The translations under genes and the position numbers were made by a program. A stretch of DNA of 64,000 nucleotides, taken from positions 3,348,001 through 3,412,000 of the forward strand of contig CM102290.1 of assembly GCA_046563655.1 (NCBI GenBank). Direction: 5' to 3'. The DNA comes from Yuukianura sp. NJ FZ-2021. Taxonomy: Eukaryota. How positions within the stretch are numbered: the stretch's first letter is position 1; every line of letters begins with the position of its first letter. Shown here in pieces: positions 1,929-52,421 of this stretch. The notes under the pieces are model-generated. The model was given only the letters and a program-made list of their open reading frames with translations. It was not told the DNA's origin and did not search any database.

Positions 1929-4465
1929 TCAAAGGTAATTCATGAACGTGATCCAGTAGATGCAATTTAGCAGGGCAAAAGTCAATGGAAAAATTTTACG
2001 AGAGTAGGCGTCAATTTGTAAAGCTTTTGTTCTTTTTTCAGTAACCGTAGAAAGGGACTTTTGTTGTTTCAGAATTTTTCTGGGTTTTGGTGGCGGTGGA
2101 GCCGGCGGAATGTTGTATGGAATTGACTCTTCAATTTCAAAATCCATTCGTGTATGTTGTACCTGTCAAATTTCATTTTTTTTTTCAATTTGAGTAACTT
2201 AGGTCAGTTTTTGACATTAACTAAACATTTTTTCAATTTCGAAAGCTAACTTACACAAAATTGGGAACGGAAGTGGGCTTGAGGAGAAATGTTAACGTAT
2301 GCGATCTCGTCCGATGTACAGTCATTGTTGGCAGTACTTTTCTTGGGTTTGACCTTGAGGTCAGCGGAGTCGCCTAGAACAATATTGACGAGACAGTACT
2401 CCATGAGCGCCAGAAAAACAAATCTAAATCGGGTTAAACCAGAAACAAAAACAGATAAAGTGTTTACTAGCTTAAATTAATCGTGACCTTGCATCTAATT
2501 TTCGCAGTTGTTAACTCACAGGTTAACGCTAACCTTCCCCCTGGCCTACATTTGGAATTTTTTTTTTGAAAATAGCGTCGTGTCCTGTGAGAATTGTGAT
2601 ACGGTATCATTTGTTTTCCCAGCATGAACGTTTAAACAGATTAAAAGATAAACGATTTGGCCGAATTGATCTGGCGTGTGTTTACGGTTAGAACATATCA
2701 GTGTCCATTTGTAACACTTATGAAATTTTTTTGTAACTTATGTTAAAGATACAGCGATTGATGCGAACTGCGTGTAAACGTGTTATTAGTGTTTATAAAT
2801 TTTTTGAAATTTTGAATCTGGATTTTAAGGATTACATGGTACATGTTGACATGAACAGATCGACAGCCTTGAGGTAAGATACTGGGGGAAGCCCTGCTTG
2901 TGACTTGGCATGTTGTGTTGATAAGGTCAGCAGTGAGGTCACGCCCAGAGTTACTCGAGCTGGAGCAGCTTCAGGCGCAATCCAGAATGAAATCCACTGT
3001 AAATATATTTCAAAAAGTTCAAAAGTTAGCTTATGAGAGTATTGGGGGACTCTGGTCAGACTTCAACGTCTTTAGTTTGTCGAGGTCACGAGGTCAGAGT
3101 TCAATCTACAGACAGTCTTACCGACATGACGACAATGAGGCAAGTGGGTACGTAGGTATGGAATAGGTAGTAGCCCAACCTCCTCTTCAATACAAACACT
3201 ACTTCCAGACAAGTAAAATTTCCTGTTTAAAAATTAGATTCTGGAAATTTTTAAAATTTTTCTGTTCAAAAGGTCATAGTAGTTTTGAGTTTTTGAAGAA
3301 GTTGACGCGTTCCTAGGTTTAGTTAAAAAGTTTGCTTTCTCCACTTTCTCCGCTATACCTGTTGAGTAGCTGTGACTGCAATCGGCAGTTCTGTTTTGGA
3401 CTAGCTGTAATTGTGGAAGTTCAATTTTGTCATCAACAACCAACGGTAGCTCCTTGTCCCACTCAAAAATCAAGTCATCCGTTGTATGTGAAACTTTTTC
3501 AAAATGAATCCAAGCAAAAGTGAAACCAATTTCAATTTCAATTTCAAATTTTCTCTCTTACGACTCTCCATTTGTAAGGTACACTCTTGTGTATCGTGTG
3601 GGTAGAGGGCAAAGTTCATGGAACACGAAAGTGTTAATGTCAACCTAAAAATTCGTTGGATTAGTACGGATGCAGCGATTTTTGAAAAATTCGAACACTC
3701 AAAAACGCTTACTTGACCATGTAGAGCAGCGATTTGTCTTTGTATAGCCACAAGTAGTGATTCGGAATCGTCATTGTTTGAAACGTAACTTGTTTTGCAT
3801 TTTTGAAAAATGAATCCGGACGCCACATCTGATCTAGCCATCCAACTTCAAGTAGCCTTTTTCATCCAATAAAAATTTTCACATTTCATAACTTTTTTCA
3901 AAATTCAATTTATGGAATCTTCAAACAACGATTTTGATTTTGATTCACCTGTACTCCGTCGTCATATTCTCGGGAAGACGGAGTCTGTCATCTCTCCAAC
4001 TTTGTGACACAAAGATGTCAGCAGCATAAGTCTATCACAAGAGGTCAAATGTGGGTCATCTGTTTTCAAATGTCAAGAGGTCAAAGGTCAAGTTACCATG
4101 GAGTACTCATTGATAGAGTCAAGGCCCATGACGGTAACATGAAATTCAACCTTGGTAGCGTGACCATCTTGTTTCGGTGGTCTCATACGATCATAAAGTT
4201 GTGGGTTTGGAATTAACTCAGAAAAGGCCAAACGCATTGTCGAGTTTTCCTCAACGTTGGAAGATTTCTGTGTGGCGAAACCTGTAGAATCGGGAGATTT
4301 TGTTGTTGCTTGAGATGTACAAAGCCTGAAAATATTCCAATTAAAAACTAATTTTTTTAAAAACTGATTTGAAAAAATGCTTTACACTTCCAAAGCTGTG
4401 GCAGTGAGTGGGGAGACGATGAACAAATAATTGCAAAGAGAAAGCACACCGTTCAGAAATCGCAT
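1929..4465 (-). CDS. ort: Histamine-gated chloride channel subunit (Cys-loop ligand-gated ion channel), ort/hclA type; about 10 exons
   Basis: ATG at 4465 with a hydrophobic signal-like start (MRFLNGVLSLCNYLFIVSPLTATA). Then YDRMRPPK...FHVTVMGLDSINEYSM|TYAADIF, EYRLLEVGWLDQMWRPDSFFKNAKQVTFQTMTIPNHYLWLYKDK, Cys loop CSMNFALYPHDTQEC, loop C DCSHSYSTGNFTC, M2 with anion-selective PAR motif (APEAAPARVTLGVTSLLTLSTQHAKSQ) and M4 IDAYSRKIFPLTFALLNCIYW. TFQTMTIPNH and STQHAKSQ fit ort rather than HisCl1. Confidence 0.9.
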
Positions 4466-6563
4466 TTTCAAAATCTAAACTTTCACAGCGTCACTTTCAC
4501 CATCTATTTTTAATCCAATTTTATGAGATACCGTCACTTACTAAATATCTACAAATTTAAAAAAATTAAAAATTTCTGAAAACATGTAGAAAATTTTGGA
4601 AATTTTAGCAAAACTTTCTCTTGCGCTCCCCAAAGCTTTTCAAATCGTTCACAGGTTTCGAGAGCTGACTTGTTCCTTCCATCGTCGTATGTCAAGGACT
4701 GAAATGTCGCGGTACTTCTCATGTTATTCTTTAGCTGTTTTGGTTATCGTCTCATCTTAAAAATGACGAAAAAGTTAAAAATGTTGGAGATCGTTTTTCA
4801 AAAATTAGAATGGTATAACCCTGTTTTGGGAAAAAAAAGTGCTGACGTATTCAAAATTTTGAAGAGATGGTTCTTTATTTTACAAAAGCCAACACAAAGA
4901 TTCTTCAAAAAGTGCAGACCAGTCAAAATGTTAAGTGGTCTTAACAATGCTTTCACTTTTTTACAGTTTAAAATTGGATCAGATTTCGAAGAAAATTAGC
5001 AAATTGCAAATTTATCCAACAGCATTAGATCGAAGATTCGGCAGGGAGGATGATTCAGGGTTCTAAAAATAATTAAAAGGAAAATAAATCAAAGTAATCT
5101 TAAAAAAATCTAAAAGTCCTGCCGCATTAACCACATTTTTAGTAAACAAGTCAGCGTTAAATCGCAGTTAACCATTTTAAAAACAGCAAGGAACATCAAA
5201 AACCTCCAGAATCACAATGACATTCAGGAACTTCTCAATGTCAAAGTTAACTTAACTGCGGTTCCAAAAAAATTCCAATCAATTCCGTCACACCATGTCG
5301 AGATAATCATAAAGCGACTCTAATTACAACCACTTAACCAACTTCGACTTTAACTCCAAGCCACTAAATCATGCATTGAACTCGAGGATTCTACTTAACT
5401 AATTACCAACCAAAATTAACTAATGAAGACAAAAATTTTTTATTTAATATGCTTGTCACATAAACCAAAAAGTAAATCCAAAACGGCACCACAGAGTTCT
5501 TAAATTATCATTAAATCCTTTCGTTAAGTTATTACAATACAGACATAATGAAGCCAACTGTAAATTAAAAGCGCACAACTTGCACTTTGAAGAGACATGA
5601 TTACAAACGTTTAAGTTATCATCAAAGTCATAAATTAATTTAGGCAACTAAATTATATGAAATCCAAAGTCCGAACTCTAAGAAAATTTGCAACACGGCA
5701 AATGGAAAAAAAACAGTTAAGGAAATACCAAAACTGCTAAATTGCACAATGAAACATGTAACTACTTTAACAGAGGAGGATATTGCACTGCTACGTGAAT
5801 TTACTTAAAAGTTAATCATTTAAACAATTTGAACTACCAATTGACACTGTCCTTTTCAATTCAATTGTCACACGTGACAATGATGTGTTTGACTTAAGTT
5901 TCTAACAGTTCAAATCTAAACTCTCCTATTACCTCCTCAGTACAATGTTTTTAAATTTGCGCATTAATCAAACTTGGTTTTAACCGTTATTGCTTTGTAT
6001 CTACAAAATATTTCTCCCTCAGCATCATCAATTTCAGTACGATTTTACCCTATGTCCGTAAAACACAAAATATTCCACTCCTGAATTTCAAGGTCACAAC
6101 AAAACGCTGCAATCTGGGTCATCTTATAACATTGATTCTGGAGCACATTCAACTTATGTTTTTCTAGAATAAATTAAAAGCCAAAAATGAAAAGCACATG
6201 AGAGTCTTGGTTTTGGACTCGTCAAATATAATTATTTTTAAGGTATCATTGTTCTTAACATCTACAATTTTTTTTTGGATTTTTGTTCATTTTTAATTTT
6301 TTTTTGATTTTTATAGTTTTATGAAATGTGTATTAAGCGCTTATAACAACAGTAGCTTCAGCATCATTACGTGTTTCTAGGTTGTTAAACTTAAACCGTT
6401 TTGGAAATTGAGTTAATTAAAAAGATCTAATTGGAAATTGACTTAAAGTGAGGCAAAAGAAAGTTATGTCTAATTGGAAATTGAACTTTTTAGAAATGGG
6501 TAATTTTGAAAGAGAAAGAATTGCAGTGTGATCAATTGACGTTTGACGGATGACGTCGGACTT

Positions 6564-8939
6564 TTAGTTGATGTTGTAGACCATGTAAACGTAGTCTTCC
6601 TGGGAATTTAGAACCAATGGGCTGTTCGGAGCAGCTACGTAGAATCCCAGAAACATAAATGTCCGAACCAGGGTAGCTAAAAAAAGGAGACAAAAAATTT
6701 CATTTGTAATGTAAAATTCATTTGCGGCGTCATTTCACTTTGAATGTTACAACTAGAGCAAGCTACATTTGAATCTCGGGTAAAATTCTTTGGTTTCTGA
6801 AGTTGCATTTACTGATATAACGGTTTTTTTCCTAGAGTGGAAAAGTAAACATAAAATTCGTGATATAAAAATTCCATTGTTCAAAGTTCGTAAAAAAACA
6901 ACTCAGATTTCTTTCCGGAAATTATTTCAACCACTAAAGAAAAGATTTACAGATTGTTTAGTATTGATTCTGCAAAATACTATTAGTTGATTAATATCAC
7001 AACCAACAACATTGCACTTTGCACTTGGCAAAATGTCGTCACTGAAAAGGATATTTGGCACCACTTGGGAAAGTGATCTATGTCATAAAGCTTCTCAATT
7101 GGCAATGGTTTAAATGTGACTTTTGGCACGAGTAGTGTTGTTTCTACTGCGCATTATTTTGGTTGAATTGTAAGTGGAACCGATCCCAAAGTCTTGCTCG
7201 CTCGTGTAAGAATTCAATTGGCACGTTAAGAGACGTCGGACTTAAGTCCGTTTTAATTTACCTCTGTCGACACGATCCTTGGAAAAGCAAACGATGGCAT
7301 GATTACACTGCAAAACTTCCTCAGCATACTCCAAGAGTGCAACGAAGGCATCCTTCGATGAATCTGGAAGTACTCCGTTAGGAACCTCGATGTACAGGTT
7401 GTCGTTCTGAAGAACAGTATCCCATTTCAAAAGAGTTTGAGTCGTTAACGAATATCGAAAAGTAATTTGAAGCGGTTGTCCTTTTGCCAATTCCTGAAAC
7501 AATGAATAGACGTAATGGAAAGTTACTTTTATAGGATTTCATTAGTATGGCTGTGTGTCTTAAATGAAGTACTCAAATTCAACCATAAAAACACGCGGCT
7601 ACTCATTCAGATACTAAAATTATGAATGTCACCTCTACTTTTTTTTTGTACCCGTTTATGGTTTAAAAAAAACGATTGGAAAACTACTACTTTGAAAATA
7701 CCGTTAAAAAGCTATGCGTTAAAAGCAGTATTTCACCTATGTCCTGCAAATTTGCTAATTTAAGTCCCGATTTAAGATTCAAAGCGTAGTTTTTGTGTAC
7801 TTTTTGCTAAAAGCACGTTCCAGTGTTTAGTAAGTGTCAGCATGCAAAATTGAAGCTCACACGTGTGTAAACGATAAAATTGCCTTTCGGGGGTATGATT
7901 TAATTCTGGAGTGTAACTTACAACCAACGCAATTTTTAGTATAGTTATGGATACAGTAGCAAACTTACCGGAAAAACGTAATGATGCGAAGAGAGCTCTT
8001 CATTATTCCCCACGCCGTTGCTCTCTGTTGTTATAAGCGATACACGGAGTGGGAGGGCATCAAATATACCACAGAGGCCCTGTGCCAAGGGTAACGGACA
8101 ACTGTCTTGAGGCCTTCGACGATGGTTGTTTACTACTTAGATTCAAAAAATACATAAAAATCGATAAAGTAATCAGTCACTTCAGTCTTACAAAGTCCTT
8201 ACAACAACCTTCAACCGCTCAATCATATTCATAATTCATCAAAGTCCACCTCGTGTTCATAAACTTATGAATTATCCTTAATGGTAATAGCGCTAACGCG
8301 TGGATAAAGGTAACATTACATCGCAATAACGGCAATGTAAGAGAAATTGGTTTTTTAAACCTAAGGCATCCCCCCATAGTGTACCAAAAAATAAGATGAA
8401 AGCTATCCGACTTTAGCAGAAATGCTTGAGTTGACTACGTAAAAGCTCAACTTTAATTAAAACCTTTCCGATGTATTCTTCATTGACCTCAAAAGTCGTT
8501 GGATTTACGTTATTCAAGTTATAGAAACATCAACGTAACCAGGATTTGTTTCAAGTTTGTTCCACGTAACCCAAACCACAAGAATGTGGTTACCTTTGCC
8601 CCTTAGTCACATTCAAACTCAAAGCACTACAGTACCGGCCCTACGTAATTTTCCGTTACTTTGCATTAGTTTCGGCATCTAACAAAGCTAAATATAGATA
8701 TCTAATGATGATGATGCTAAATACTAGTAAAAAATCATGCATGAGTATTATAACGGGAAGGTTGTAAATGTGACGCAATGCCACAAATTCTCAAGTTAAG
8801 ACAAAAAAAGACACTCAAGAGAAAATATGAAAAGTGAAATTTAATTAGAAACTCACCTCATCGTTAACGCCATATTCTTCGAATTCAAGAAATTACTACT
8901 TAATATTGTTGATGAATTGTTGAGGGTACTGATACTCAT
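6564..8939 (-). CDS. Oaz: Ornithine decarboxylase antizyme; ORF1 and ORF2 joined by a +1 ribosomal frameshift; exons 8939-8857, 8135(or 8132)-7969, 7493-7262, 6676-6564
   Basis: ORF1 MSISTLNNSS...RQLSVTLGTGPLWYI* ends at TGA 8062-8060. The +1 frame continues DALPLRVSLITTESNGVGNNEELSSHHYVFP|ELAKGQPLQITFRYSL...WDTVLQNDNLYIEVPNGVLPDSSKDAFVALLEYAEEVLQCNHAIVCFSKDRVDR|ATLVRTFMFLGFYVAAP...YVYMVYNIN*, a typical antizyme domain. Splice phases are all consistent. Confidence 0.95.
7990..8080 (-). promoter_or_regulatory. Antizyme programmed +1 frameshift cassette: GGG CCU CUG UGG UAU AUU UGA U plus a 3' H-type pseudoknot
   Basis: Shift codon ATT at 8065-8063, stop TGA at 8062-8060. Stem 1: UCCCACUCCGU (8054-8044) with ACGGCGUGGGG (8018-8008). 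Stem 2: AGAGAGC (8026-8020) with GCUCUCU (7996-7990). Confidence 0.85.
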
Positions 8940-9477
8940 GTTGACAAATTTTGACGGACGAGTGAAGTAACGGTGACTGTAGTAGGTAAGTTTAGTAGAG
9001 GACTTTTACGGTAGCGACTGCTAATCCCAGCTTCCAGAAGTGTTCTGTAAACCTTCAACCTTTTGGATTGACTCCGAGTAGAGAACATTCTAGCTACTTG
9101 GGCACCTACAGAGCAGAGGGGGCGGAAGAGTCCATTTCCTTCATAATTCGCCCCAGAAACACACCATAGCGACCAGTCCCACCACTTCTTATTCAGAGCA
9201 GAAGCAATGTTGCTATGGAAATGGCGAAAGCAAACTATGGGAGTATTAACGTTACAAAACACACTATTTCTGTGGTTTAGTTCCAAAATTTTAATTAATT
9301 TTTTAATTAATTTTTAAATAATAAGGTACTAGAATGATTCGTATGCTTGTTGGGGTATCGCCCCATTTTAAATAAATAAGTTACCAGAATGCGGTGTATA
9401 CTTGTTGGGACTTCGCCTCAAAGAATCAATGTCATAATCTAAGGAATAATAACCTGTGAAAGCCATCCAAGCAAAAG

Positions 9478-41230: not shown

Positions 41231-44200
41231 TCAAATGGTCCAAACTTGAACCTTCTCAGCAATGATGCACCAATTGGCATGGTCGTAGTACGAACTAATT
41301 ATATGTAAGTTTTGAACGTATTTTTCAATTAGTTTGTCTAGTTCTCCCTCTCGAAATACGTGGTAGTAACGATGATACGTTTTTCCAGGTCCTCCTGCAG
41401 AGTCCTCTGTCTCTTCACCAGCCACTGAAGAGGACTTGCTCATATCCTGACGACGCCTGCGCCGTCCATTTGGACTCATTCCACAAGTGGGCCCGGCCCC
41501 ACCCGGTGGAACCATGAAAGAACCCGAATTCCTATGTGAAGAATTCGTCACGGAGGACTTGGCTGAAGAGCAGTAGCTCTCAAATGAGTCTCCACCACGA
41601 ATAGAACATGAGCACGTAGATGACATACGAAAGCTTGAGTCAAAAGAAGGGTTCCTGGACGGATCCTGTCGACTACTTGTCAAGTTTTCTATGGAATCAA
41701 ACAGTGAGTCCCGCTCTTCCAGCTCTTCAAGCAGCCTTTCCGCAAGTTCTAAGGAAGGAGATGTCATGGAGACAGGAGGAGGTGCGGCGGTAGGTATTGC
41801 TGGCCCGGCTTCTCGCTCTTCTTCGTCACCTTGACCTTTGACTTTGGTGGCTGTTGACGGTGGCGATTCGTCTGTGAAGCAAGAGGGCCATTTTGCATCA
41901 GGGCCTCTCGGTTGTAGTTTCTTCACTTCTCCTAGTAAGATTTTTTCTCCAGGGTGTCTTCGCTCGGCTGATGGTCGCTTTGACAACGTTCCATGAGGAT
42001 GAGACTGTCCTGTCATGTCACTTTGCTGCAGCGGAAGGGATGACAACCAATCCGTAGTGTTTCCAAGTCGAGCCAAGGTCAACTTTCTTTTGGACTGTGG
42101 ACTATAGTGAGATCCTAAGCTGTCAGATGATTCAAAAGACCCGCCACAGCCTCCTTCAACTGAAGAATCTCGGCTAGATGAAGCTTTACCGGAATCGGAT
42201 TTCAGTTCTTCATTGCCAGGTAACTTTTCTTCTTTTGATTCGTTTCCTAGCAACTGGTCGTCTTTGGTTTCAATACCCGGCAATTCACTTGAAACAACTT
42301 CTACTTCTTTTGGTGCCTCCATAAGACTCTCTTCAACTTCTCGACGATGGGCCGCTGACGTGTCCTCCTTGACGCTGACGACGCTGCTAACTGAATCGGG
42401 TGAAGACGACGAGCTTTCAGAAGTATCAGCGTCATCCGTCTCAGGGTTGTAGAGTTCCACTGCCAAAGCTTTCGGCAAACTTCGTCTCACCAACTTCCGC
42501 GTAATTTCGGCTTTGTTTTTAGGAAGATTGACAGGTTTACGTAGCACGTCAATTCTTTCAATTCGGCGGCTTTTTGGAGAAATTTGAAGCTGCTGGCCAA
42601 TCTGTTCCCGTTCTTGAATCATTTCCTGAAGAAGGACAGCGTCAGCATTTTCAACTGGAATTTCTTCAGTTGAACCCATAGAAATTGGAGGTGGAGCCAG
42701 CACAATTTCTGGAACGGGTTCTGATTGACCTTGATCGGTGCAAAGTGCTGAATGTGGAGCTGGGCTTGGGCTTTCTGCCAATGGATGAGACGATGGTGCT
42801 ACATTTGACAAAATGAATTGAGTTGCACTGTCGTCAAATACAAATTTGTTTCCGCTGCGCTGTTCTGTCGGAGTGGGAATTGGATATCGAGTTGGACTCA
42901 GTTCAGGACTTCGTCTTCGTCTCATTGACGCCATTTCGGTTGCCAATGGCGACGGACTCTTGGGTGTGCTGCTATGATTAGGTGGCGATAGTCTCAGAGC
43001 TGGTGATTTGGAAGATCGGTCTGAATCGGTACTGTTTGCTCTTGTTTCACTACCGAAACATTCATTTCCTCCGCCATTTTCTGATCCCTTTGGAATGAAT
43101 ATAACAGAAGCAAAACTGTCTTCAGAGTCAACGCTCGTGTCGCTCTGAAAACTAGAGTCTTTTGAACTGTCTGATCCACCATCTTCACGTGACAACTTCC
43201 GAACATGCCGAACTCCCGGCACTAACTTATTTCCAACTGGGGTTCCAAGCCGAGCTGTGTCATGCAACAAATCATTTTCTGATGGTTTTCGACTCAAATA
43301 TGGCGGTGGTGAGAGGAGTTTGAGGGGTGAAGTCTCCCCAAGGTCCTTTTTGGCTACGTTAAGTGACCCTGCGGAGTTTCTTCTTAGGAAAAATGGCGGA
43401 AACAAACTTCGGCGTGGAGCGGAAGTAGTCGTACCTGATGGTCTTGATCCCATAAAACCAGAGTTAGGGCCCTTAGTAGCACTGGAATCCTCAGAAGTTG
43501 TTTCACTTTTCCAATTTTGTAAAATTCGAACAAGTCCATTCCGAATTGAATTGGTCGTTTGGGTTTGTGGGGGTGACGGGCCGGTAGTTGTGGATCCAGG
43601 AGAAGATTTGAGTGGAGTTGATGTACTTTGACCTCCTGAAGTTGACTCATAGCCACGAAATCTACTGCCAACATTTTTGAGAAGTTGGATACATTTGACA
43701 TTAGAAGGATTGAGGAAGGCTTCCTTCATTTGGTCCCACCGCGTATTTTCATTCTGTAGTTCCTTACTTAGAAATTCTTCATTGAGAGAGCATTGTTTTG
43801 TGATATTTTGTTTTAAAGTTTCTTTTTCACGGAGCCGTTCACTAAAAATGAGTTCCTCATTCAGTGACGACTGTTTCCATACAGAAGGACTTGGATGACT
43901 GACTCGGAGTGACGATTTGAGTGGTTTCTGAGGACTCACAATTGGTTTAAATTCTGGAAGATTTTTTACGGAAGTTTTGATTTCACCCCAAGAAACTTCA
44001 GGACTTGTTGAAGGGCCCCCTAGTCTGGGCCCTTCAACTTCAAAACTAACATCAATAGATGCCAAGGGAGAAGTGACTGAGTGCTTTTGTTTGACAAGCA
44101 TCGGACGAGTCGAGACACTTCGAGAAGTTGTAGCAGTTGTCGTCGTTCCTTGAATTTCTGGTGACACTGATGCTGTGACTGGCGTGACCTTTGTGTGACC

Positions 44201-47200
44201 TGCCAACGAACTAGTGCGTGACTCGATTGATCCACTGGTGAAACTGAGTGACTCAAATCCCTCTGTCTGTACAGCCTTGTGAGCAACATATTCAGGAAAT
44301 TCAACTTCGTCTTGTGACAAGTCAAAATCCAATTTCAAAAAGTTTGATGTCGAAGGGACTGCGACATTGTCGGGGTCAGTGAGAAGTGGAACTTGTTTCG
44401 GAGCCACAGGAGTGTCGGCGGGTGATCGATTCCAAGTAGACCGAAAAAGTCCAATGGGAATCATCCCGAGTAAATCACTCAGGCTTTTGGATTTGGGTTG
44501 GGCCGATATTTTGTCATGCGGATGCCGAAGTTCACGAGTCGTTTCCAGAGTTCGTCTCCTAAAAAATTACGAAAAAAAAAATCACGAAATTGCAAACAAA
44601 AATCTGCTGAGATTTTTTTTTCTCTTCTAAAATTCGTTTTGTTCAAACAAGATTTTACCTCCTGGTGCTCAAAAGATTTGAAAAAATTAAACTCCGACGG
44701 GCTAAGGAACTACTTTCACCAATTCTAAATAGTTCTGATAGATTCGATGACCCAAGGTCATCCGTCCCTTCCTTCAAATCTTCTCCAGCATCTTCATCCA
44801 TAGAAGCCAATGGCTCTATGAGCTCATCTTGTTCTCCTAAACCAAGTCCTTGTAAAAACCACGGACCTCTGCCCACTCGATTTCGTTTGGTTCTTGCCAA
44901 TTTCTAAAAATGAACAAATATTTCCAAAAAAAAGTTTCAAAAATGAATTTTGTTTTTGCTAATTTTAGCAATATTTTTCACCTGAATCGCTCTCCGGACA
45001 AAAGTGTAACAGGATTCATTCGGGCTTGACAAATCGGAGCTACTCTGTGAACTGCATGCGGGATCAATGGACTGTCCTCTGTGCCGAAGTCGTACACGCT
45101 TTTTCATATCTCTTTACAAGTAAGTTCAAACCAAAATTTTTGGAAATGAAAAAAAAATTGAACTTTTGAACAAAAGTTTTTCGAATTTTTGTGCGTGTTT
45201 TACTTTAATTACCTGAGTGATGGGAAGGAGTCCGAGTCGGATGTCTGCGTATACGCATGATAGTGCGTCGCATCGTCATCGGACGTCGTCGTAGTTGAAT
45301 TCAAATCTCGTTCAATGGAAGAAGTTTTGTCGTCGCTACTGGAAATCGCTGGTCGATTCCAAGGAACCAATACGTCTTGGGATTCAAACTAAAAAACAAA
45401 TCATGATTTTATAAAGAAACCTTAAAATTTTATTTGTTTTTTTCTTGCTAGTTTTATAGGTCAGAGGTCAAACCTTTCTATGCCGTTGTTCCATGGCCCA
45501 AACGGATACGAGTATTTTCCCGCCAATACGCAAAACTCGTGCCAACTCCCGTAACGCCTCAACCCTTCTGCCAGCAGTTGCAAAATGGTGGACAACCGCC
45601 ACCGACAAAACAGCATCGATACAGTCATCTCGAAATGGAAGCGCCAAGTTATCTGCGGTCAAAACCTGTTCAAACGAAACTTTTTTTGAACAAGTCTTCA
45701 ATTTTCAAAAAACGTACACCCATGAATTTTCAAATTGGTAAGTTCCAATTTGCTAAATTGTTTTTTAGGTTGTAACTTGCCATCAAAAACCTATTTCTCC
45801 ACTTTTGGTAATGACGTTCGATTAGTTTTAATTGGCTTTAATTGATTTCTACTGCAAATCATTAGTTCTAGTTGCAAAATGAATTTATCTCACAGCGGGA
45901 CTACGTCTTTGGGGCCATGTTTTGACAAAATTGACATTGACATTTAACGTCAATTAGCATTAATATTGTTAACTTTTACCTCATGAGCTTTGTCCCTTGT
46001 AGCAGTGACCAAGTTTGGACATCGATCCACGCCTAGCTTGAACAAATGTGGGTTGATGCCCATGTGCTTCCCGTTTCCACAGCCTGGAACAGAGCAAAGG
46101 TCAAAAACGTCAATAGACAGAGGTCATCAAATATGAATAAAGGTCATGCTCGTGCTTTCTCCTTGTAACCGGAAATGAGAATTAAGGTAAAGAAGACACA
46201 GGAGGAGCAGGATGGGTGTTTCCAGGCCTTTGCTAAAAATTTTAAGGCTGGAAACAAGGTGAGCAAAGGCTCTAGCAAAAAAGAATCGATACTTTCTCTT
46301 GTGCCTCACTTTCACTTTATTCTCCATCCCTAAATCCAAATGGAAACAGGTTGTTTCGTTTGGGAGCAGCAAAATGTGGAAAAGTCTAACCATGCCCTCA
46401 TACTTTCTTTTATAAGAGCTCAAACAGAAATGCGACACAAAACTTCTCTTTCAAATTCAAAAAAAAAATTCATTCAAGAAAGAGAAAGTTGCTAATGTGA
46501 ATGCTAAGCCTATTGGAACTTATATGCTTCTAGGGTTTCCTATTACAACTCCCATTGTAACAAAATTAATCAGAAACTTTTCTCTCAACTTTCACTTTTC
46601 GTTAATTTTTTTTTTTGTTTGTTTTATTCTGAAAGTTTTTGTTGGAAAAATTGGATTGTTTCTTTCAATTTAAAATTGAATTGATTTTTTTTTGCAAGTA
46701 AACTGTTTTCCTGTTCCTTTTCCTTCCTTCGTTCTCCTGTCATGTAAAATTTAGTTTGACGTCATGTGGACTCATTTTCTTGTGTTTAATAATAGATTTT
46801 ACACCGCGAAGTAATCAATTTATGATTTGTACAGGATCAAATACGGGCTTGGAGAAAATTACTGACGTTAAAGCGCTAAATGAAAATCCATCCCAGGTAC
46901 AAAGGCATCTTCAAAACCAAAAACAAAATCGAGTTAAATTTGTTTTTGGCATAATAGTATTTTGAAATTTGTTTGCTTTTTTTTTTCAGGATACTGCATT
47001 GCTGAACGACTTATCGCAAAGATTCATCGAAAAGGTCAGTGTAACTTGTTTTCTCTTGTATGTTTGGGAAACATTTCCTTAAAACTCAATTTACGAGGCA
47101 GTACTTGACGGACTTTCGAAAAATATCATTTTGGACCTGAAGAATTCATGAAATGCGTTGCTAAACTTGAAAAATTTCAAAAACAAACAATTAGTATATA

Positions 47201-51520: not shown

Positions 51521-52178
51521 TTAGTTTCTTCCTCCGCAGTATCTCAGCATTGTCCGAACGCCGCAGGCTCGTTTGCAGCACTCGTCAGTGAGACTTCTTC
51601 GGACACGATGCTGCCCCAGTCCTTCCGTAAAAATGTGCATGGCCACTGTTTTGGAATTTTTGGGCCAGAGGTCAAGGTCAGTCGAGGTCAAAGAATTGTC
51701 TTGGCCGTCCCAAGTCTCTCCGTCAAAGTCCACTGGAGCAAATTCGTTGTTTAAGGAAGAAGATGACAGGAATTTGTCAAGCGGCATCTTTCCGTCGTCG
51801 TCATAGGCAGCTCCCAAGTCTGGAAGACAAAAGAATTAGCATGTTTATGATCCACACTAGGTTAGGTTTCAAAAATTTTCCAGAGCTCTTTTAAGTTAGG
51901 CTAGAATAGGTTATGGTTTGGCTGAAAATATAAAAACGGTTACTGGCTAGTGCTGGATCGGATCGTCGTGTTAGAGCAGCATAGTTTCCTTGACAGAGAT
52001 TCCGAACGGCGTCGACCAAGCGTGAACCGCAGTACTGCATTTCACCGCGCTTGATCAGTTGTTGTGCCGTGTGAATCCAAGCTCCACCGTGCCCACCATC
52101 CGGAGCACAACAAACTAATGCAACGCTCAGCGTTATCCAAACCAACAGGCAGGAACTGAACTTCTTTCCACTTTCCAT
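51521..52178 (-). CDS. Insulin-like peptide precursor; coding exons 52178-51944 and 51819-51521
   Basis: Signal peptide MESGKKFSSCLLVWITLSVALVCC, B chain GEMQYCGSRLVDAVRNLCQGNYAALT-RR, C peptide interrupted by a phase-1 intron, RVRR cleavage site, and A chain SLTDECCKRACGVRTMLRYCGGRN (CC-x3-C-x8-C). All six insulin-family cysteines are present. Confidence 0.93.
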
Positions 52179-52421
52179 TTCTAAAACTACAAAAAATAGG
52201 GTATTACAAATTGCAAAACTTTGAACCTTGGTTTGAAATTTTGAAAAGGCTAACTGTTTTGGATTCGGACTAACTTTGTGTGAGTCTGAAAGGGCCGAAA
52301 TTTGAACCAATTGTCAAAGGAGCAACTGAAGGTTAGTGTGAATTTGGAAAAGTTAGGTTAGGGGTTATGTCACTGGTCCACCGGCGGTCGTGGAGTGTGT
52401 CTGTGGTGACAATGGTGGTCC

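Follow-up and report, generated by a model that had tools for sequence, protein, structure and literature searches.

An arthropod antizyme gene, most likely from a springtail, with a predicted +1 frameshift site at AUU-UGA

Antizyme frameshifting is the textbook cellular case of regulated +1 recoding, and how much the P-site codon contributes to it is still debated. Here we describe an ornithine decarboxylase antizyme gene on the minus strand of a 64,000-nucleotide stretch of DNA (the window; positions 3,348,001 to 3,412,000 of contig CM102290.1, assembly GCA_046563655.1, deposited as Yuukianura sp. NJ FZ-2021), in which the first open reading frame (ORF1) ends at AUU-UGA and the antizyme domain follows in the +1 frame (ORF2). 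The described antizyme shift sites are catalogued in PMC1874602 (Ivanov & Atkins 2007), which gives a two-frame layout for all antizymes, lists seven P-site codons in its Table 1, CGG not among them, and argues that alternative shift sites arose repeatedly. AUU-UGA is listed there for planarians, trematodes and Echinococcus, and the Arthropoda entry of Table 1 holds only UCC and GUU. The site that the original prediction had called non-canonical is, as a codon pair, already on record in flatworms, and only its place in arthropods goes beyond that table: AUU-UGA is here a known variant in a new lineage, and its arthropod occurrence does seem new. The passages searched in the 2016 recoding review (PMC5009743), in PMC2375905 (OAF) and in a 2015 JBC paper (PMC4505036) mention neither AUU nor CGG sites. 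Full-text literature searches, outside whose coverage lie subscription journals and the Recode database, returned no paper joining antizyme with Collembola; with per-species supplement lists outside coverage as well, they returned no paper joining antizyme with CGG-UGA and nothing relevant for antizyme with ATT-TGA. Peptide strings matched no paper in the full-text literature.

Compared with the described systems, the locus is closest in its shift codons to the flatworm AUU-UGA antizymes, with which it shares the P-site codon, the stop, the gene family and the two-ORF layout. The flatworm genes belong to another phylum, whereas AUU here lies inside a clade of UCC and CGG sequences that contains a springtail sequence; the two are compared here at the shift codons and in the ORF layout. 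The Crassostrea gigas-type class II (IIa) UCC-UGA mRNAs, as described in PMC1874602, likewise have a conserved 5' cassette, UGA-U and, a few bases past the stop, an H-type pseudoknot whose loop 1 is long and whose hinge is 1 nucleotide (nt); the window pseudoknot fits the published description of this class IIa invertebrate type. Unlike these mRNAs, the window has AUU with UAU before it. The distance from stop to stem 1 is 5 nt instead of 4, and in the AUU clade stem 1 is interrupted by a mismatch. The GUU-UGA system of shore crabs and the UUU-UGA system of C. elegans-like nematodes and mushrooms, again following PMC1874602, resemble the window site in that the +1 codon is UUU and re-pairing keeps positions 2 and 3. 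They differ in the first P-site base and in the tRNA (Val or Phe; here Ile), and the GUU-UGA and UUU-UGA relatives found in this analysis lie outside the 17-row clade described below.

We interpret the locus as a functional four-exon antizyme gene whose product is made by a +1 slip at AUU-UGA in an arthropod host, in all likelihood a springtail, and we put the probability of this interpretation at roughly 0.85. The gene model was built from the sequence and then checked against RNA contigs. Its parts are as follows.

8940 to 9026, minus strand: 5' untranslated region, minimum extent (the contig of run X7 continues to 9026)
8857 to 8939, minus strand: coding exon 1, ORF1 start (ATG at 8939-8937, donor GT at 8856-8855)
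7969 to 8132, minus strand: exon 2, with ORF1 end, shift site, ORF2 start and 3' pseudoknot (acceptor AG at 8134-8133, donor GT at 7968-7967)
7262 to 7493, minus strand: exon 3, antizyme domain core (translation P0001; Pfam ODC_AZ, E 2.9e-12)
6564 to 6676, minus strand: exon 4, antizyme C-terminal end (stop TAA at 6566-6564; ODC_AZ, E 0.003; RNA joint 7262/6676)

Joined by these coordinates, the exons give an ORF1 of 51 codons and an uninterrupted ORF2 of 145 codons in the +1 frame. Because ORF2 has no methionine before its last 30 residues, it cannot be translated alone. The Pfam profile ODC_AZ (PF02100) matches exon 3 with 46.9 bits against a cut-off of 24.2, and exon 4 matches profile positions 77-114, below the cut-off when scored alone. 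The frames, the ODC_AZ match and the ORF1/ORF2 model agree with the original prediction that the antizyme gene is completed only in the +1 frame at AUU-UGA, and the antizyme gene structure needs that frame. Splicing of intron 1 is seen in a contig of run X7 that joins 8857 to 8132, skipping 724 bases, and splicing of intron 3 in a contig of RNA run X6 that joins 7262 to 6676; read on the minus strand, both introns are bounded by GT..AG. For intron 2 the support is indirect: the exon 2/3 junction peptide of the model recurs identically in the metatranscriptome protein P0023, which is 90% identical to the window ORF2. Exon 1 has a second in-frame ATG downstream of the one at 8939-8937. The exon 2 acceptor is of the NAGNAG type: the AG at 8134-8133 is used in the one RNA contig, and the other AG lies 3 bases upstream at 8137-8136, where its use would add one in-frame Ser codon.

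The shift site and the signals around it lie within exon 2 in the following order.

8066 to 8098, minus strand: conserved 5' cassette (...GGGCCTC[T/G]GTGGT...), from alignment A2 of 22 sequences
8060 to 8065, minus strand: shift site, with P-site codon ATT (Ile) at 8065-8063 and the ORF1 stop TGA at 8062-8060
7990 to 8054, minus strand: H-type pseudoknot, from a helix search with pair counts on alignment A3

Positions 8080-8059 of the minus strand read GGGCCTCTGTGGTATATTTGAT (the reverse complement of window 8059-8080), with the codons GGG CCU CUG UGG UAU AUU UGA U. The 0 frame stops at the TGA and meets more stops beyond it. The +1 frame, in which ORF2 begins at GAT (8061-8059), is open from the shift site to the exon end at 7969. 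The base after the TGA is T (8059), giving the stop a weak 3' context base (UGA-U); among the aligned sequences the TGA is invariant (22/22), and it is followed by T in all but L013, which has C.

Seven sequencing runs contain the stretch, four of which were compared: X1, a DNA run that may be the source of the assembly; X5, a DNA run from another study and under another organism label; X6, an RNA run; and X7, whose RNA label is only a guess. Over 8057-8080 the DNA contigs of X1 and X5 show no differing letters. Such agreement between separate studies makes it unlikely that the shift site was misassembled. The check for ATT-TGA in reads and RNA that the original prediction had put forward came out positive in the DNA contigs; the RNA contigs do not reach the site. 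That same gap is what speaks for the locus being a pseudogene or a sequencing or assembly error, with a base lost or gained in a gene that once had a single frame or a UCC-UGA site. Against such a loss or gain stand the agreement of the two DNA runs, the presence of the same site in five other sequences, a ratio of non-synonymous to synonymous change (dN/dS) of about 0.1 and the two-frame layout common to all antizymes as given in PMC1874602, and we consider it extremely improbable.

We searched for relatives at both the protein and the contig level. Searching proteins with the peptide of exon 3 identified 21 longer relatives and 12 of similar length, with cluster representatives all from metatranscriptome or Logan assemblies; there was no exact match to the window exon 3 in this protein collection, the best being 94%. 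A scan of metagenome contigs gave 31 loci. Shift sites were read in 24 spliced contigs, namely those with ORF2 running on across the exon junctions, and in four genomic loci, by reading the 0-frame codons before the ORF1 stop and with identical rows counted. The sites read are listed here by codon pair.

AUU-UGA: L001, L002, L004 (UAU before), L015 (UGU before) and genomic L003 (UAU before)
CGG-UGA: L005, L016, L021 and genomic L012 (UAU before); L019, L020 (UUG before)
UCC-UGA: L006, L008, L010, L011, L013, L014, L017, L026, L027, L028, L031 and genomic L007, L009
GUU-UGA: L022, L023
UUU-UGA: L024, L025

L018 has only 0-frame stop candidates without the cassette, and no site was found in L029 and L030. 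Comparing shift sites, which the original prediction had put forward as a check on related arthropods, placed ATT-TGA in five relatives, within one clade with UCC and CGG; a cassette recurring in this way is more than chance. In the spliced contigs L001, L002, L004 and L015 the ATT-TGA is kept and ORF2 is unbroken. Between the window ORF2 and these four relatives, 50-56% of synonymous sites differ (pS 0.50-0.56) against 9-21% of non-synonymous sites, giving dN/dS values of 0.11-0.24, and by this measure ORF2 is under purifying selection. Because synonymous sites have diverged by about 50% and yet the cassette is near-invariant (over the first 55 aligned columns, window and L001 differ in only 2), the ATT-TGA site is old, conserved and present in the relatives' mature mRNAs.

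Some of the relatives' loci have features of their own. In the genomic locus L003:613-760, whose exon 3 is 88% identical, the cassette is split by an additional intron of about 117 bases that separates TGG from TAT-ATT-TGA, and the UAU-AUU-UGA context arises only after splicing. The CGG-UGA set comprises six sequences, all mRNA contigs except the genomic L012, at L005:329-458, L012 near 2318-2345, L016:416-545, L019:662-791, L020:414-543 and L021:324-453. P0089, a protein of 507 residues with no visible antizyme likeness, sits in the 90% cluster of P0078, a 54-residue antizyme fragment; its membership is probably a clustering artefact.

The relatives' mRNAs also bear on whether a frameshift is needed at all. 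A short cryptic intron in exon 2 could remove the stop, as in the public model of Allacma fusca (Collembola, Symphypleona), whose protein P0039 passes from the residues immediately ahead of the cassette straight to residues past the pseudoknot region, and introns of 80-95 bases are normal in the window genome. All 24 metatranscriptome contigs read, however, retain the cassette, stop codon included. Among them is the L006 mRNA, which keeps UCC-UGA and whose ORF2 shares 96% identity with the Allacma protein, and a discarded intron would leave unexplained both the nucleotide-level conservation and the compensatory changes of the cassette and pseudoknot. We therefore regard such an intron as very unlikely. 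The original prediction had held that no splicing bypasses the stop, a statement that holds for the mRNAs of relatives. Its expectation that automated annotation would mis-model the gene is borne out by the Allacma fusca database protein, which jumps the shift site, and by the lack of an exact exon 3 protein in the collection searched.

At the protein level the 5' cassette corresponds to the motif VTLGxGP(L/R)W in the tail of ORF1, and the GGGCCTC-GTGGT stretch before the site is kept in most of the 22 rows of alignment A2. By its likeness to the mammalian sequence, this stretch may correspond to the published 5' stimulatory modules A and B. On the 3' side the helix search identified an H-type pseudoknot. 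Stem 1, which starts 5 nt after the UGA, pairs 8054-8044 with 8018-8008 (11 pairs, one U.C mismatch) and also appears in the single-sequence minimum free energy fold; stem 2 pairs 8026-8020 with 7996-7990 (7 pairs). The hinge is 1 nt, the third loop is 11 nt in the window, and 25 nt separate the strands of stem 1 (20-29 in relatives). The same architecture was found in 22 of 25 rows, with a stem 1 of about 11 pairs lying 4-5 nt after the UGA, a long loop containing the 5' strand of stem 2, a 1-nt hinge and 10-13 nt in the third loop. In L005, L016 and L021 this helix search found neither the anchors nor the architecture; L005 has a possible 16-pair hairpin 3' of the stop in place of the pseudoknot.

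Support for the pseudoknot came from an in-register alignment of 21 sequences, in which standard pairs fill 89.7% of 360 cells, compared with 37-58% when the 3' partners were slid by 1-3 columns. In alignment A3, stem 1 is 94.5% and stem 2 83.8% paired. Changes on both sides occur in 8 of 18 pairs, four in each stem, and the covariation score of 0.226 compares with 0.131 in shuffles, none of 500 shuffles scoring as high. The predicted 3' pseudoknot is thus backed by compensatory base changes.

Several observations count against a working +1 site of this kind. RNA contigs of the window's own organism (X6 and X7) cover only 6400-6676, 7262-7425, 8094-8132 and 8857-9026; none spans 7969-8093, hence neither the shift site nor intron 2. 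In one contig of run X5, at a depth of 3.8, the stretch of five A at 7972-7976, within ORF2 just before the exon 2 donor, is longer by one A; this is probably a low-coverage error rather than a frame-breaking allele. The single-sequence fold of 7985-8062 is unremarkable (z -1.57; among 200 shuffles, 14 reach an equally good fold) and is not evidence by itself. Within the AUU clade, stem 1 is broken internally by U.C or C.U at a position that is G.U or G-C in UCC relatives, and given this mismatch the pseudoknot stimulator may be weaker in that clade. Rfam gave no match in the whole window at the gathering score or in 7900-8200 at E up to 10, a null with no bearing on the pseudoknot, since a class II model was not found there.

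To place the gene we built a maximum-likelihood tree of 25 ORF2 rows. The window and L006 fall in a 17-row clade (support 99/97) made up of 7 TCC, 5 CGG and 5 ATT rows, and the GUU, UUU and remaining UCC rows fall outside it. The five ATT rows form one group (86/96), in which the window joins L001, L002 and L004 (95/98). AUU is, on this tree, a lineage-specific state inside a clade with UCC-UGA members, as the original prediction had proposed. The only named member among the 31 clusters examined is the Allacma fusca protein, which lies in the 90% cluster of P0014, a UCC-UGA type; it is identical to P0014 at 139 of 143 positions (97%) and to the L006 ORF2 at 137 of 143 (96%), and the window ORF2 is 63% identical to it. 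In the protein atlas the nearest cluster consists of antizymes, with Arthropoda as the most frequent phylum, an indication too weak to use alone.

The neighbouring BLTP1 gene offers a second view of the host. Among 18 organism-named matches to a 179-residue exon of this gene, 16 are arthropod; the 12 best are all arthropod (insects, Limulus, Penaeus, a barnacle and Ixodes), Priapulus and a mollusc come only lower, and no flatworm is among the 18. The arthropod host implied by the original prediction is upheld by these 12 matches and by the presence of Allacma fusca in the antizyme clade. These two independent lines point to an arthropod; with the Allacma protein as the one named anchor, a springtail is the best reading, short of proof. 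We considered and rejected a flatworm origin of the gene in view of the ORF2 tree, the Allacma fusca clade member and the arthropod BLTP1 matches. Intron length was set aside as a taxon clue, the BLTP1 introns of 80-95 bases not being decisive.

Because the host is an arthropod, the clade holds a springtail protein and AUU is nested among UCC and CGG rows, we conclude that the AUU-UGA site, although it would work like its flatworm counterpart, does not share descent with the flatworm AUU-UGA genes and had a separate origin. A further independent origin fits the established pattern, since repeated origins of alternative sites are argued for in PMC1874602. With UCC, AUU (convergent with flatworms) and CGG in one clade, springtails may even be a hotspot of antizyme shift-site turnover, an idea we put forward tentatively and at somewhat worse than even odds.

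For the +1 slip at AUU-UGA that we favor, we infer the occurrence of the shift, its polyamine response and the behavior of the P-site tRNA. Ribosomes would read ORF1 as far as UAU-AUU, with UGA-U then entering the A site. There a fraction would shift +1, continue with GAU (Asp) and go on to finish the antizyme domain. Stimulation would come from the signals usual for invertebrate antizymes: the 5' cassette, the poor stop context UGA-U and the long-loop H-type pseudoknot 5 nt past the stop. By analogy with all tested antizymes, shift efficiency would rise with polyamines, and the site would be both sensor and effector of polyamine feedback. At the P site, tRNA-Ile could slip from AUU to UUU, keeping two of three pairs and losing the first position, like tRNA-Ser from UCC to CCU; by this analogy, and by standard pairing rules, the re-pairing put forward in the original prediction is plausible. 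Alternatively, the first stop base could be passed over without re-pairing. In the CGG-UGA relatives, tRNA-Arg (CGG) cannot re-pair with the +1 codon GGU, and because of this, re-pairing may not be needed in this lineage.

The UAU codon before AUU raises another way of reaching ORF2. The inosine-34 anticodon of tRNA-Ile reads AUU, AUC and AUA, and UAU-AUU-UGA offers a perfect AUA two bases back, so the productive event in the same gene could be a -2 shift, in which tRNA-Ile moves from AUU back onto AUA and UUU and then GAU are read, adding one extra Phe. UAU precedes AUU in five of the six AUU sequences, and section 9 of PMC1874602 describes -2 shifts on antizyme signals, the mammalian cassette shifting -2 more than +1 in S. 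cerevisiae. However, L015 has UGU-AUU, for which -2 pairing is imperfect, and UAU also stands before CGG in four of the six CGG-UGA relatives, where no -2 pairing is available; UAU is not specifically tied to AUU. No natural antizyme shift examined to date is known to be other than +1, and we count this too against a -2 shift, which we judge unlikely.

Returning to the +1 slip, AUU, UCC and CGG relatives share their flanking signals, which argues that different P-site codons can stand in for one another while the stimulatory context stays the same. If the UCC, AUU and CGG sites all work, the +1 shift here would be independent of P-site re-pairing. The P-site codon would then be free to drift while the 5' cassette and the slow UGA stay, and the clade would form a natural allelic series to test slippage against the occlusion model; closely related natural cassettes of this kind suit side-by-side reporter tests. 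A second, independent origin of AUU-UGA, in hexapods beside UCC-UGA and CGG-UGA relatives and with flanking signals unchanged, adds a data point. These genes are missed or mis-modelled by gene predictors, the sole named springtail protein found skipping the site via an invented intron, and most springtail annotations probably lack antizyme or model it wrongly.

Elsewhere in the window, the BLTP1 gene (a KIAA1109/tweek-like bridge lipid-transfer protein) occupies 14000-36500 on the minus strand, with many exons and introns of about 80-95 bases. The minus strand also carries an exon of a Cys-loop ligand-gated channel at 3473-3847 (Neur_chan_LBD, E 8.6e-09) and an insulin-like peptide gene at 51524-52313 (Insulin family, E 1.9e-04, just under the cut-off). 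An open frame of 1111 codons at 41234-44566, again on the minus strand, has no Pfam match.

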